64,000 nucleotides of DNA from sequence record OQ540978.1; one strand, given 5' to 3'. Positions within the stretch are counted from its first letter, which is position 1; every line of letters begins with the position of its first letter. The notes beneath the pieces were generated by a model. It saw only the letters and a program-made list of their open reading frames with translations. It did no database searches and was not told the DNA's origin. Source of the stretch: Escherichia phage pEC-N1203-2Af.1. The position numbers were made by a program, and so were the translations under genes. This document shows, in pieces, positions 50,447-52,193 of the stretch.

Positions 50447-50549
50447 CTAAGGTGATTGTATACCTTACTCCCTTTTAGCTCGCTGTAGCGCGTTTTAGGC
50501 CGCCTATTGTTGCTTTACAAGCCGTTTTCTATGATGTATCACGTGCGCC

Positions 50550-50559
50550 CGCTCTTTTA
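50550..50559 (+). promoter_or_regulatory. boxA-like element
   Basis: CGCTCTTTTA. Confidence 0.35.
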
Positions 50560-50666
50560 CCTTCCTATAGTGAAAAAGTTTAAAATAATTTGCTTTGCCC
50601 TATTGCACTTCCTGAAAGCTCACGTATACTGATTTTCATCGGGTACGATGTAAAACATACGCCGCG

Positions 50667-50681
50667 CGCTCTTTAAAAATC
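50667..50681 (+). promoter_or_regulatory. boxA-like element
   Basis: CGCTCTTTAAAAATC, close to lambda nutL boxA as recalled. Confidence 0.45.
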
Positions 50682-50714
50682 AGGCTAGAAAGTGAAAAAT
50701 ACTTGAAAAAGTAT

Positions 50715-50742
50715 TTGACAACTGGAAAGCCTAACCTATAAT
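50715..50742 (+). promoter_or_regulatory. strong sigma70 promoter P1
   Basis: TTGACA, 16-nt spacer, TATAAT; AAATACTTgaaaaAGTATTT palindrome just upstream. Confidence 0.7.
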
Positions 50743-50885
50743 GAGCTTAGAAAGACAAGATGACCGCTCAAGTAACTCCCTAGTGAGTGAAGCAAGTCAG
50801 ACGCAGGCAGGCGGATACCATTCCCCGGAATAATCGCAGGTTATCTGATTATCAAATGGTGTTATGGGAGCCATACAGCTTTAAA

Positions 50886-50900
50886 CGCTCTTTAAAAATC
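50886..50900 (+). promoter_or_regulatory. boxA-like element (in P1 transcript)
   Basis: CGCTCTTTAAAAATC about 136 nt downstream of P1. Confidence 0.45.
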
Positions 50901-50933
50901 AGGCTAGAAAGTGAAAAATACTTGAAAAAGTAT

Positions 50934-50961
50934 TTGACAACTGGAAAGCCTAACCTATAAT
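50934..50961 (+). promoter_or_regulatory. strong sigma70 promoter P2
   Basis: TTGACA, 16-nt spacer, TATAAT (duplicate of P1). Confidence 0.7.
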
Positions 50962-50993
50962 GAGCACAAGTCAGCGATGACGTGAAACATCCC

Positions 50994-51013
50994 CGCTCTT
51001 TAAAAATTTATCA
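50994..51013 (+). promoter_or_regulatory. boxA-like element (in P2 transcript)
   Basis: CGCTCTTTAAAAATTTATCA, near-identical to the rrn boxA GCTCTTTAACAATTTATCA as recalled. Confidence 0.5.
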
Positions 51014-51121
51014 TCTTGCCCTTTCGCATAGATTCACGCGAGATAAGGGAAAAGAATAAAAGAAGATGATAAAAAGAGTTTGACAAGCTAACACGACGTG
51101 TTAAGCTGTAAATGTAGTAAC

Positions 51122-51135
51122 CGCTCTTTAACAAT
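51122..51135 (+). promoter_or_regulatory. boxA-like element
   Basis: CGCTCTTTAACAAT. Confidence 0.5.
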
Positions 51136-51238
51136 ATGGATCATAAGTTTAAGCCTCATCGCTTGATCTTCAATCAAACAAAGCTGATTGATATATCCTC
51201 CCAATAGCGGGAACGATGAAAAAAGATTAAAAAAGCGG

Positions 51239-51267
51239 TTGACAGCGAAAACATCATGGTCCATAAT
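51239..51267 (+). promoter_or_regulatory. sigma70 promoter P3
   Basis: TTGACA, 17-nt spacer, CATAAT, then TGAGC as in P1/P2. Confidence 0.6.
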
Positions 51268-51359
51268 GAGCGTACTCACTAGGCAAATCACCGCTTAAGT
51301 GAAAAGCGAAACAACGGCTTACAGTTGCGTAGCGTGAGAAAGCACGCTGACAGATTTAC

Positions 51360-51373
51360 CGCTCTTTAATAAT
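51360..51373 (+). promoter_or_regulatory. boxA-like element (in P3 transcript)
   Basis: CGCTCTTTAATAAT about 85 nt downstream of P3. Confidence 0.45.
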
Positions 51374-52193
51374 TTAAACATTCTCATATATCGGTTGAAT
51401 ATGCTGGAAGATAATAACCATCGGAAAGCATACCAGATAAAACGGCGTAAGGCTCCCTAAAACATCAGGGTAAACAGTTTTACAATCCCTTAACTGGAAA
51501 CGTCACCACTGATAAGCGGATTCATTGAGTACACGCAACGGTTTAAGCTAATCGCCCACGGTTAAGGGTAGCGGCGGCCATCGCTAACACGGTGCTACAG
51601 TGAAAGAAACTAATCAGGGCAGACAAGTCCGACGAATTAACGCCCAATTGAGGGCGGCGGGGGATGGTTAAAGGGTAGCAAATTGCTATTTAACAATAAG
51701 GTTTAGTGTGAACGTTTACGATGCGAACGGCTTGAGATTCGTCTTATGATGAAAGTACATAGTCGGTTTATGTAGTAAACTTGCCGAAAGATATAAAACG
51801 CCGGAATGTTAGGCGGTTAGTGACTTTTTCGCAATAGTATCCCATAGTGGGCGATGACTAGCGAAAGAGAGCTGATACAAAAGGATAGGCGGGAGCGAAA
51901 GCAAAGTAAACGATATTGCCGATGGTTACAGCAATGTAATTAAATTGAATCGGACGCACTGCCTTATTGTGATGATTGATCATCGCTATCAGGTCGGCTT
52001 CGTTTATAGCGACTAATTAAAGATACCAGATGAAACATCACGGATAAGGGAGCGGCAAGGTTAACTCCTGATAAGACCGCTCCGCTTATCAATATTTACT
52101 TAACATTGAGTGGATATTGATAAGTCAATAATGGCTTAAAAGGCTCATAGCGAGCGGGGGCAATAGTGCCCTTACAATTGAAAGGTGAATATC

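Follow-up and report, generated by a model that had tools for sequence, protein, structure and literature searches.

Antitermination by boxA elements and host Nus factors is textbook knowledge for bacteriophage lambda, where it involves the phage protein N, and for rRNA, and it has recently been extended to CRISPR arrays and to suhB. On the rRNA (rrn) operons, the antitermination complex (rrnTAC) comprises NusA, NusB, NusE, NusG, SuhB, and S4, and its signals follow one another in the order boxB hairpin, boxA, boxC. In this study, a 64,000-nucleotide stretch of the genome of Escherichia phage pEC-N1203-2Af.1 (OQ540978.1; the whole stretch is hereafter called the window) was analyzed with regard to an array of boxA elements located upstream of the main early operon, in a 1.84-kb spacer (50344-52184) free of open reading frames (ORFs). 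Judged from its sequence, the phage is a virulent Kuravirus (Gordonclarkvirinae) whose genome is reversed relative to the phiEco32 numbering, and the phiEco32 counterpart of the spacer is 1.94 kb long and unannotated. The spacer is best explained as the control region of the main Kuravirus early operon, composed of repeated modules of a strong sigma70 promoter, a short hairpin, and an rrn-type boxA, and the array appears to be a new use of known boxA/Nus signals, at the head of a virulent-phage early operon.

The Escherichia coli rrn antiterminators carry the same boxA as the phage, in leader-type (AACAAT) and spacer-type (AAAAAT) variants, together with part of the flanks. Like the phage locus, they have a hairpin 5' of boxA, tandem strong promoters with A/T-rich upstream regions, and a long structured untranslated RNA, the first long-range helix of which starts, in the phage, right after boxA. 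They differ in possessing a boxC, which the phage does not have, and in carrying one leader and one spacer boxA, whereas the phage has up to five, one per promoter. Moreover, the RNA of the phage, which is virulent, bears no relation to rRNA, and protein-coding genes come after it. The nutL and nutR sites of lambda are likewise phage boxA elements on early transcripts, where they serve the recruitment of host Nus factors that is predicted here as well; the first base is C in both, and boxA copies 2 and 3 of the present array likewise have a downstream hairpin with a purine-rich loop. However, the lambda boxA, CGCTCTTA(A/C), binds NusB:NusE approximately tenfold more weakly than the rrn boxA (PMC2800207), whereas the phage motif is of the rrn type. 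Lambda, in addition, is temperate and has a single site and an N protein, whereas here an array occurs in a virulent phage for which no N homologue was identified in a plus-strand ORF scan of 47.9-64 kb.

The put sites of phage HK022 share the early-leader setting and make the polymerase termination-resistant in cis without a phage protein. They bind RNA polymerase (RNAP) directly via two stem-loops, without boxA or Nus factors. In Salmonella, an rrn-type boxA likewise heads an unusually long untranslated transcript, that of the CRISPR arrays (Stringer et al. 2020, PMC7665894), and CRISPR boxA elements occur also in many other bacteria, with host Nus factors alone preventing premature Rho termination (PMC7665894). 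That system is chromosomal, has a single boxA, and was demonstrated experimentally, whereas the phage case is deduced from sequence. The 5' untranslated region (UTR) boxA of the suhB type (Baniulyte et al. 2017, PMC5725501) has the same GYTCTTTAANA motif, likewise in an mRNA leader, but lies within ~50 nt of the start codon and represses translation, whereas the last phage boxA lies ~830 nt upstream.

Rrn-type boxA elements in the early control region

An earlier note on this DNA had described promoters, boxA elements, and a duplicated unit in the spacer, and motif, repeat, and promoter scans found all of these where it had placed them. The features of the array are as follows (promoters were scored out of 12 against the sigma70 consensus; transcription starts are predicted).

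50550-50560, plus strand: boxA-like copy 1, CGCTCTTTTAC, upstream of all spacer promoters
50603-50630, plus strand: weak promoter P0, TTGCAC-16-TATACT, with an A/T-rich stretch 5' of it and a predicted start at ~50637; below the scan threshold
50667-50680, plus strand: boxA copy 2, CGCTCTTTAAAAAT, which begins the 80-nt repeat unit
50697-50716 and 50916-50935, plus strand: hairpin AAATACTT-GAAA-AAGTATTT, the 3' arms of which overlap the -35 elements of P1 and P2
50715-50742, plus strand: promoter P1, TTGACA-16-TATAAT (12/12), predicted start ~50749
50886-50899, plus strand: boxA copy 3, CGCTCTTTAAAAAT, in the second 80-nt unit
50934-50961, plus strand: promoter P2, TTGACA-16-TATAAT (12/12), predicted start ~50968
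50970-50981, plus strand: hairpin GTCA-GCGA-TGAC, preceding copy 4
50994-51013, plus strand: boxA copy 4 with linker, CGCTCTTTAAAAATTTATCA, ~26 nt after the predicted P2 start
51080-51107, plus strand: promoter P3, TTGACA-16-TAAGCT, weak in this phage
51122-51135, plus strand: boxA copy 5, CGCTCTTTAACAAT
51239-51267, plus strand: promoter P4, TTGACA-17-CATAAT (11/12), predicted start ~51274
51331-51348, plus strand: boxB-like hairpin AGCGTG-agaaag-CACGCT, ending 11 nt before copy 6
51360-51373, plus strand: boxA copy 6, CGCTCTTTAATAAT, ~830 nt before the ATG of the first early gene (gp124), at a position invariant in all 25 phages compared below

The word GCTCTTTWA matches the plus strand of the spacer at six positions (50551, 50668, 50887, 50995, 51123, and 51361), in agreement with the six copies counted before, and both strands of the window hold nine matches against 1.89 ± 1.32 expected, a number that none of 100 shuffles reached. 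The gammaproteobacterial boxA consensus GYTCTTTAANA (core UGCUCUUUA; PMC5725501 and PMC6614797), based by Baniulyte et al. on boxA sites that are functional in E. coli (PMC5725501), has eight matches in the window (0.67 expected), five of which form a plus-strand cluster at 50668-51371. Copies 2 to 6 fit this consensus exactly. Copy 1, in contrast, fails it and is degenerate in most relatives, with GTTCCTCTA or a similar sequence at the aligned position in phiEco32, SU10, SU7, and others, and is probably non-functional. The copies are spaced by 108-238 bp, and the reported duplication of a boxA-plus-promoter unit is an exact 80-nt direct repeat (50667-50746 = 50886-50965).

Comparison with the rrnB operon of strain MG1655, in the leader of which the boxB hairpin is followed by ac and TGCTCTTTAACAATTTATCAGACAATCTGTGTGGG, supported the rrn type of these elements. 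Copy 4 (50995-51013, GCTCTTTAAAAATTTATCA) is identical to the rrnB leader boxA and linker (GCTCTTTAACAATTTATCA) at 18 of 19 positions, bearing out its proposed near-identity to the rrn boxA; the same comparison gave 19/19 for copy 4 of Bas86 and Bas88 and 18/19 for that of SU7 and PAS59. Copy 5 equals the rrn leader boxA over 13 bases and, over a longer stretch (GCTCTTTAACAATATGGATCA), matches the boxA region of the rrnB 16S-23S spacer at 19 of 21 positions, while copies 2 and 3 match the boxA of that spacer at 14/14. When the whole phage spacer was compared with the complete rrnB operon by blastn, the boxA elements were the only matches with E < 0.1, and several extended into rrn-specific flanks. 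The likeness of some copies to the lambda nutL boxA, also proposed earlier, did not hold, as all copies are of the rrn type (TTTAA) and have in common with the lambda nut boxA merely the 5' C. NusB:NusE binds rrn-type boxA with an affinity of 5-8 nM and lambda nut boxA with 80-90 nM (PMC2800207), and the high affinity of the rrn type fits an assembly without N.

The region 50300-51700 matched 95 phage records by megablast, all from phiEco32-group Escherichia and Shigella phages, the closest being NJ01 (95% identity, opposite strand). The comparative set comprised 25 spacers, from this phage and 24 others of Kuravirus, Suseptimavirus, and Nieuwekanaalvirus. Each spacer contains three to five perfect GCTCTTTAANA words; all 104 of these are on the transcribed strand, and the opposite strand has none. 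The words form invariant islands in an alignment with a mean column identity of 62%, in which modules have been gained, lost, and replaced; no decayed copies were found besides copy 1 and a structural pseudo-copy in the RNA downstream. Bases outside the search word are fixed as well (66 distinct contexts: C at -1 in 57, A11 in 66, A12 in 65, and T13 in 57), and the true motif is therefore (C)GCTCTTTAA(a/c/t)AAT, that is, the rrn boxA. SU7 (SU7_114, locus 1167-1367) and PAS59 (1501-1701) have an annotated 66-aa ORF between the first boxA and the next promoter, and the insert aligned with this ORF is also present in Bas86, Bas88, and TH42. Because such an insert occurs in some phages, the upstream array is modular and variable, and the last ~950 nt are constant.

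The 25 spacers contain 48 promoters with a score of 11/12 or more, and every one of them has a boxA downstream, 14-151 nt from its predicted start and ahead of any further promoter of this rank. In the present phage, the three near-consensus promoters noted before were recovered, two at 12/12 and one at 11/12, but two weaker ones, P0 and P3, had been overlooked. The -10 element of P0 is conserved within the clade, and phiEco32, SU10, and EK010 carry a different promoter there; the counterpart of P3 is TTGACA-16-TAGAAT (11/12) in SU7, EK010, Bas88, and PAS59 and TTGACA-17-TATACT in Bas94. P4 is kept in all 25 phages at a fixed distance from the first gene. As had been claimed, four of the six copies would fall in transcribed leaders, copies 3 to 6 lying downstream of promoters predicted at 11/12 or better, while transcription of copy 2 depends on the weak P0 or on upstream read-through. 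The consensus match with rrn flanks, the 104 invariant copies, their 104:0 strand bias, and the 48/48 promoter pairing argue, in line with the earlier note, that the motifs are boxA elements predicted to recruit host Nus factors.

The sequences 5' of the boxA elements tend to fold. The 40 nt upstream had a mean minimum free energy of -7.06 kcal/mol, compared with -4.29 kcal/mol for control 40-mers from the same arrays, a difference that the nominal P value makes look stronger than it is, because the samples are related sequences. These hairpins vary between clades (GGCAAG..CTTGCC, GCAC..GTGC, GGCTA..TAGCC, and GGCAC..GTGCC). The one at 51331-51348 corresponds to helix 3 of the consensus structure described below, with compensatory changes in three of its six pairs, and the predicted order of a boxB-like hairpin followed by boxA is the rrn arrangement. 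The motif of promoters for the phage sigma factor gp36, TAATGTATA, was not enriched and has no relevance to the spacer.

An ORF of 57 aa at 50787-50960 (plus strand), which the NJ01 record names "cathepsin L-like cysteine proteinase A," spans boxA copy 3 and P2. It has a GTG start, an arginine-rich N terminus (KQVRRRQADTIPRNNRR), and no Shine-Dalgarno sequence; it is confined to the four phages whose module is duplicated, and in Bas94 it contains a stop codon. It is unlikely to be a gene.

A structured RNA between the last boxA and gp124

The last boxA is separated by ~820 nt from the start of gp124, and no plus-strand ORF of at least 30 aa occurs there after 51298. From the predicted starts, the early transcripts would have a leader of ~0.9-1.45 kb ahead of this gene. 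Mean column identity between the last boxA and gp124 is 86% across the 25 phages. The features of this region are as follows.

51373-52172, plus strand: predicted conserved structured non-coding RNA of ~800 nt
51373-51672, plus strand: RNA domain I, the closing helix of which starts 2 nt after boxA copy 6
51673-51691, plus strand: RNA hairpin
51684-51697, plus strand: pseudo-boxA (seventh copy), TGCTATTTAACAAT / GCTATTTAACAAT, with A in place of C at core position 4; invariant in all relatives
51693-51970, plus strand: RNA domain II
51971-52172, plus strand: RNA 3' hairpin series
52181-53093, plus strand: Shine-Dalgarno sequence AAAGGTGAA and first early gene, the phi32_124 homologue gp124 (ATG at 52194, 299 aa)

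RNAalifold, applied to the alignment of 51268-52199, yielded 237 pairs in 39 helices, with compensatory double changes in 76 pairs. Among the cells of the alignment, 99.1% were paired, compared with 34-46% when partners were slid by one to three columns and 93.2% in shuffled alignments; the percentage paired is inflated by the derivation of the structure from the same alignment. That derivation leaves the seven-fold excess of covarying pairs unexplained: slid partners gave 8-11 and shuffled alignments 37 ± 3.6, and none of 500 shuffles reached 76. The structure is specific to the transcribed strand, as indicated by 594 G-U cells against 19 A-C cells and by an alifold energy of -245 kcal/mol on the plus strand against -154 kcal/mol for the reverse complement; the single-sequence minimum-free-energy z-score was -6.3 on the plus strand. 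The pseudo-boxA at 51684-51697 is buried in helices 17 and 18 and is therefore regarded as a structural element rather than a free boxA.

No Rfam 15 family was found for any part of the leader, at gathering or at E-value thresholds, the best match in 50300-52300 having E = 0.31, far below the family cutoff, and over the whole window the tRNA alone passed the gathering score. An nhmmer profile of the RNA had no matches in the rrnB operon or in phage 7-11, and the blank result against rrnB rules out a fragment or a sequence-level mimic of rRNA. An invariant 21-mer of the RNA was found in seven further kuravirus-like metagenome contigs, whereas no invariant RNA words were found in the bacterial genomes of the GTDB set; the RNA was found only in the Kuravirus/Suseptimavirus/Nieuwekanaalvirus group and those seven contigs. 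GOLLD, ROOL, OLE, HEARO, and raiA are RNAs of the same size class (~800 nt), likewise with many covarying helices and phage association, but the phage RNA differs from them in having no Rfam 15 match, in its 5' leader location, and in being transcribed together with boxA. RNA 51373-52172 is regarded as a new family, and its 76 covarying pairs place it with the best-supported candidates for a large non-coding RNA from a coliphage that is cultured and accessible to genetics.

A repeat search for internal duplication in the RNA gave short repeated words only. The word ATACCAGAT(A/G)AAAC occurs twice, in different domains (51430-51443 and 52023-52036), and could be a protein-binding or tertiary-contact motif. 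A predicted long-range helix 4, pairing the 5' flank and initial bases of boxA copy 6 (51354-51364) with the gp124 Shine-Dalgarno region (52180-52190), was not counted as supported, as none of its pairs covary and Bas88 and TH42 disrupt it.

Possible roles of the array

We consider it probable that the early transcripts are loaded with host Nus factors at the boxA copies, which would act as rrn-type sites independent of N. The boxA in the nascent RNA would be bound by the host NusB-NusE(S10) dimer and would nucleate a NusA/NusG/SuhB complex on RNAP, as on the rRNA operons; with no phage protein needed, such a complex could act on the very first transcripts. The modified polymerase would be faster, Rho-resistant, less prone to stop at intrinsic terminators, and tethered to the 5' RNA. 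It would thereby cross the 0.9-1.45 kb of untranslated leader and aid the folding of this leader, with the last boxA placed 2 nt before the 5' strand of the predicted closing helix, much as the rrn leader boxA stands beside the 16S processing stem. Transcription would then proceed into gp124 and past a terminator at 53116 into the remaining early operon. The Nus/SuhB complex is known to counteract Rho and to lower intrinsic termination in vitro (PMC6614801), and in the "delivery" model the tethering of the 5' RNA would help distant RNA segments to pair (PMC6614801, PMC6614797). Moreover, a boxA before the long untranslated CRISPR transcripts of Salmonella blocks Rho termination in vivo (PMC7665894). 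With tandem strong promoters, hairpins and boxA elements, and then a long structured leader, the phage appears to imitate the arrangement of a host rRNA operon. Should this account be right, the phage is predicted to depend on NusB, NusE, and SuhB.

The earlier note had seen the purpose of the array in read-through of the intrinsic terminators downstream, at 53-60.7 kb, which is plausible. Between 52 and 64 kb, 19 terminator-like sites were counted against 8.1 ± 2.7 expected; a window scan found no intrinsic terminator between the promoters and gp124. The convincing ones are as follows.

53116-53143, plus strand: strong intrinsic terminator, a 12-bp stem then TTCTTTT, directly after gp124; annotated in SU7 and 4E8
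54446-54463, 54531-54550, 57295-57318, 60587-60606, and 62594-62611, plus strand: further convincing terminator hairpins

Terminator 53116-53143 is the first barrier whose read-through the downstream early genes depend on. No promoter above 10/12 occurs downstream, although a possible weak promoter, TTGATT-19-TATAAT at 53159-53189, follows the first terminator; with terminators inside the early operon and no better promoter downstream, read-through is needed. An rrn-type complex could contribute to it. What is documented for Nus complexes lacking N is, however, chiefly action against Rho and a part in RNA folding (PMC5725501, PMC6614797). A more direct rationale, of the rRNA-operon kind, is offered by the long leader with its structured RNA, which all early transcripts must first cross.

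Several observations weigh against Nus loading as the role of the array. C is not abundant in the leader, and the structured part is rich in G (C/G ~0.5), so that the leader alone may be a poor substrate for Rho. Preventing Rho termination on rRNA in vivo has, moreover, been reported not to require Nus factors (PMC5725501). None of the copies is followed by a GU-rich element resembling boxC (UGUGUGGG-like, GU-alternating, expected ~15 nt 3' of boxA) within 40 nt, and the linker is partly retained in copy 4 only; the binding of SuhB to rrn RNA relies on both boxC and the linker that joins it to boxA (PMC6614801), while boxC has been reported not to be necessary for antitermination and boxB not to be required for rrn antitermination (PMC6614797). 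Moreover, the transcription starts rest on prediction. Predicted accessibility is ordinary for copies 2 and 3 (local unpaired probability at the ~40th percentile, compared with the 85th-87th for copies 4 to 6), and as tests for free boxA and Rho loading neither local accessibility nor the C/G profile was discriminating. Finally, the distant relative 7-11 has a similar ~1-kb ORF-free leader with no transcribed-strand boxA, and T5 itself has no boxA enrichment.

In the first alternative, the copies are lambda-style nut sites, in which boxA and an adjacent hairpin are read by a small N-like phage protein, together with Nus factors, to carry RNAP through the early-operon terminators. A hairpin with a purine-rich loop does stand 17 nt after copies 2 and 3, in the boxA-boxB order of lambda nut on RNA from the upstream promoter, and the one at 50697-50716 is retained through compensatory changes, with different sequence, in 4E8, phiEco32, and Bas90 (a U.G pair in Bas90). 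The enrichment of intrinsic terminators downstream points the same way, and full read-through of intrinsic terminators is classically N-dependent (PMC5725501). However, a boxB read by a single protein should keep its sequence, whereas hairpin sequence and position vary here among copies and clades: a 3' hairpin was found beside copies 2 and 3 only, with stem and loop varying among phages and no conserved GNRA-like pentaloop boxB. Most hairpins, moreover, lie 5' of boxA, in the rrn order, and the boxA is of the high-affinity rrn type rather than the weakened lambda type. The ORF scan mentioned above yielded one arginine-rich candidate (50787-50960), which is poorly supported, although N proteins are small and divergent. 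Every early gene lies downstream of these sites, so that the first transcripts have to do without any phage protein. We regard nut-like sites as unlikely.

The second alternative, a decoy, is that abundant early transcripts titrate NusB, NusE, and SuhB away from the host rrn operons and so aid host shut-off, with antitermination being secondary. Up to five boxA elements per transcript, compared with two in rrn operons and one in lambda operons, would suit such a sink, as would the several consensus promoters that drive them and their high-affinity type. But boxA number tracks the promoters one to one (48/48), as expected for loading of each polymerase and not for a maximized number of sites, and the last boxA is fixed beside the structured RNA in 25/25 phages. 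Modules also occur singly in other phages, and phiEco32 already owns a dedicated inhibitor of host RNAP, gp79 (PMC8948821). We give titration a low probability.

DNA-level sites, in which the repeats bind a host or phage DNA-binding protein as activator sites upstream of promoters or as iterons of a replication origin, are highly improbable. Iterons, too, are arranged as direct repeats, and some origins of T7-like replication systems are activated by transcription. The copies are indeed same-orientation, non-coding repeats beside strong promoters, and a -35 element follows copies 2 and 3 at ~48 nt; however, the corresponding distance is 86 nt from copy 4 and 117 nt from copy 5, and the 108-238 bp between copies are unlike the helical-repeat spacing of iterons. 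The word is, moreover, asymmetric, fits an RNA-binding consensus including the rrn flanks, and stands 8-38 nt after promoters in unrelated phages. That the motif is a mere passenger of a promoter module spreading by duplication or gene conversion, as the exact 80-nt duplication and the differing number of modules might suggest, can practically be dismissed, given that the orthologous, unduplicated copies 4, 5, and 6 are invariant across genera at 74-86% identity while their flanks vary, that the same 13-mer occurs in modules with unrelated promoter-flanking sequence, and that 104 copies lie on one strand and none on the other.

Nus loading by rrn-type sites thus remains the preferred reading. 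A bolder extension of it, which we put forward tentatively and with more doubt than conviction, is that the Kuravirus early leader mimics an rRNA operon, in which tandem strong promoters and boxA sites of the rrn leader and spacer types hijack the rRNA antitermination and chaperone complex of the host, so that this complex would transcribe and fold an abundant ~800-nt RNA of a new family, with a trans-acting role in takeover or anti-defence beyond that of a 5' UTR, and that N-less promoter-boxA modules are widespread in virulent phages.

Occurrence in other phages and neighboring genes

To describe the occurrence of promoter-boxA modules elsewhere, IMG/VR was scanned with the pattern TTGACA-N16-18-TATAAT-N8-38-GCTCTTTAA, with the reversed word AATTTCTCG in place of boxA as the control. 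At least 120 contigs carried the pattern, compared with 20 for the control. Among the matches listed, 97 distinct contexts showed A11 in 75, AA at positions 11-12 in 66 (68%), and [AC]AAT in 45, and none of the matches listed had a 16S gene within 2.5 kb. The scan suggests that the promoter-boxA strategy is general among phages. Two unrelated virulent phages carry such modules. In Proteus phage Stubb (T5-like; MH830339, 3500-6176), four of them occupy the pre-early A1/A2 region, within the terminal repeat, and near the right end of Proteus phage Privateer, a prolate podovirus belonging to the 7-11 group, two boxA elements stand around a 12/12 promoter. The pre-early region of T5 has one boxA match, which is not significant, and the T5-like occurrence therefore holds for Stubb only. 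If true, N-less promoter-boxA modules would be an overlooked way of launching early or pre-early transcription in kuraviruses, Privateer-like phages, T5-like Proteus phages, and many uncultivated phages.

Priority for the phiEco32 promoters would belong to Savalia 2008 and Pavlova 2012, and may extend to boxA. These two primary phiEco32 papers aside, the literature searched on the phage group reported no boxA, antitermination signals, or structured RNA for the spacer, and we found no report of N-independent rrn-type boxA arrays heading a virulent-phage early operon; nothing in the literature searched joined boxA, "early promoters," and phage. In Salmonella phage 7-11 (NC_015938), the ORF-free leader (~88864-89916) precedes gene 151, whose start (ATCATGGCTAAA) resembles that of gp124, and the leader has no sequence similarity to the Kuravirus RNA. 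According to the 7-11 paper, an antitermination strategy "remains to be defined."

The gp124 protein matches PHROG 13018 (labelled as of unknown function) and no Pfam family above the cutoff. It is confined to ~97 coliphage records by tblastn, and the five related loci in IMG/VR are mostly copies of known isolates. On the other side of the spacer, the following features mark its left edge.

49978-50343: gene upstream of the spacer, phi32_125 homologue, 121 aa
50417-50439, plus strand: intrinsic terminator, a 10-bp stem then a T-run; the annotations of SU10, SU7, and 4E8 have a terminator at the corresponding position

This terminator closes a small upstream early operon (phi32_128-125 homologues) and forms the left edge of the control region; the short operon itself holds no boxA by the motif scans. 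The 121-aa protein carries a "terminase" label in several records and in PHROG 13168, but its N terminus is hydrophobic and signal-like and Pfam lends the label no support, which suggests a propagated misannotation. Within the early operon, a single tRNA-Arg(TCT) gene is present at 58867-58941 (plus strand), as in phiEco32-like genomes.

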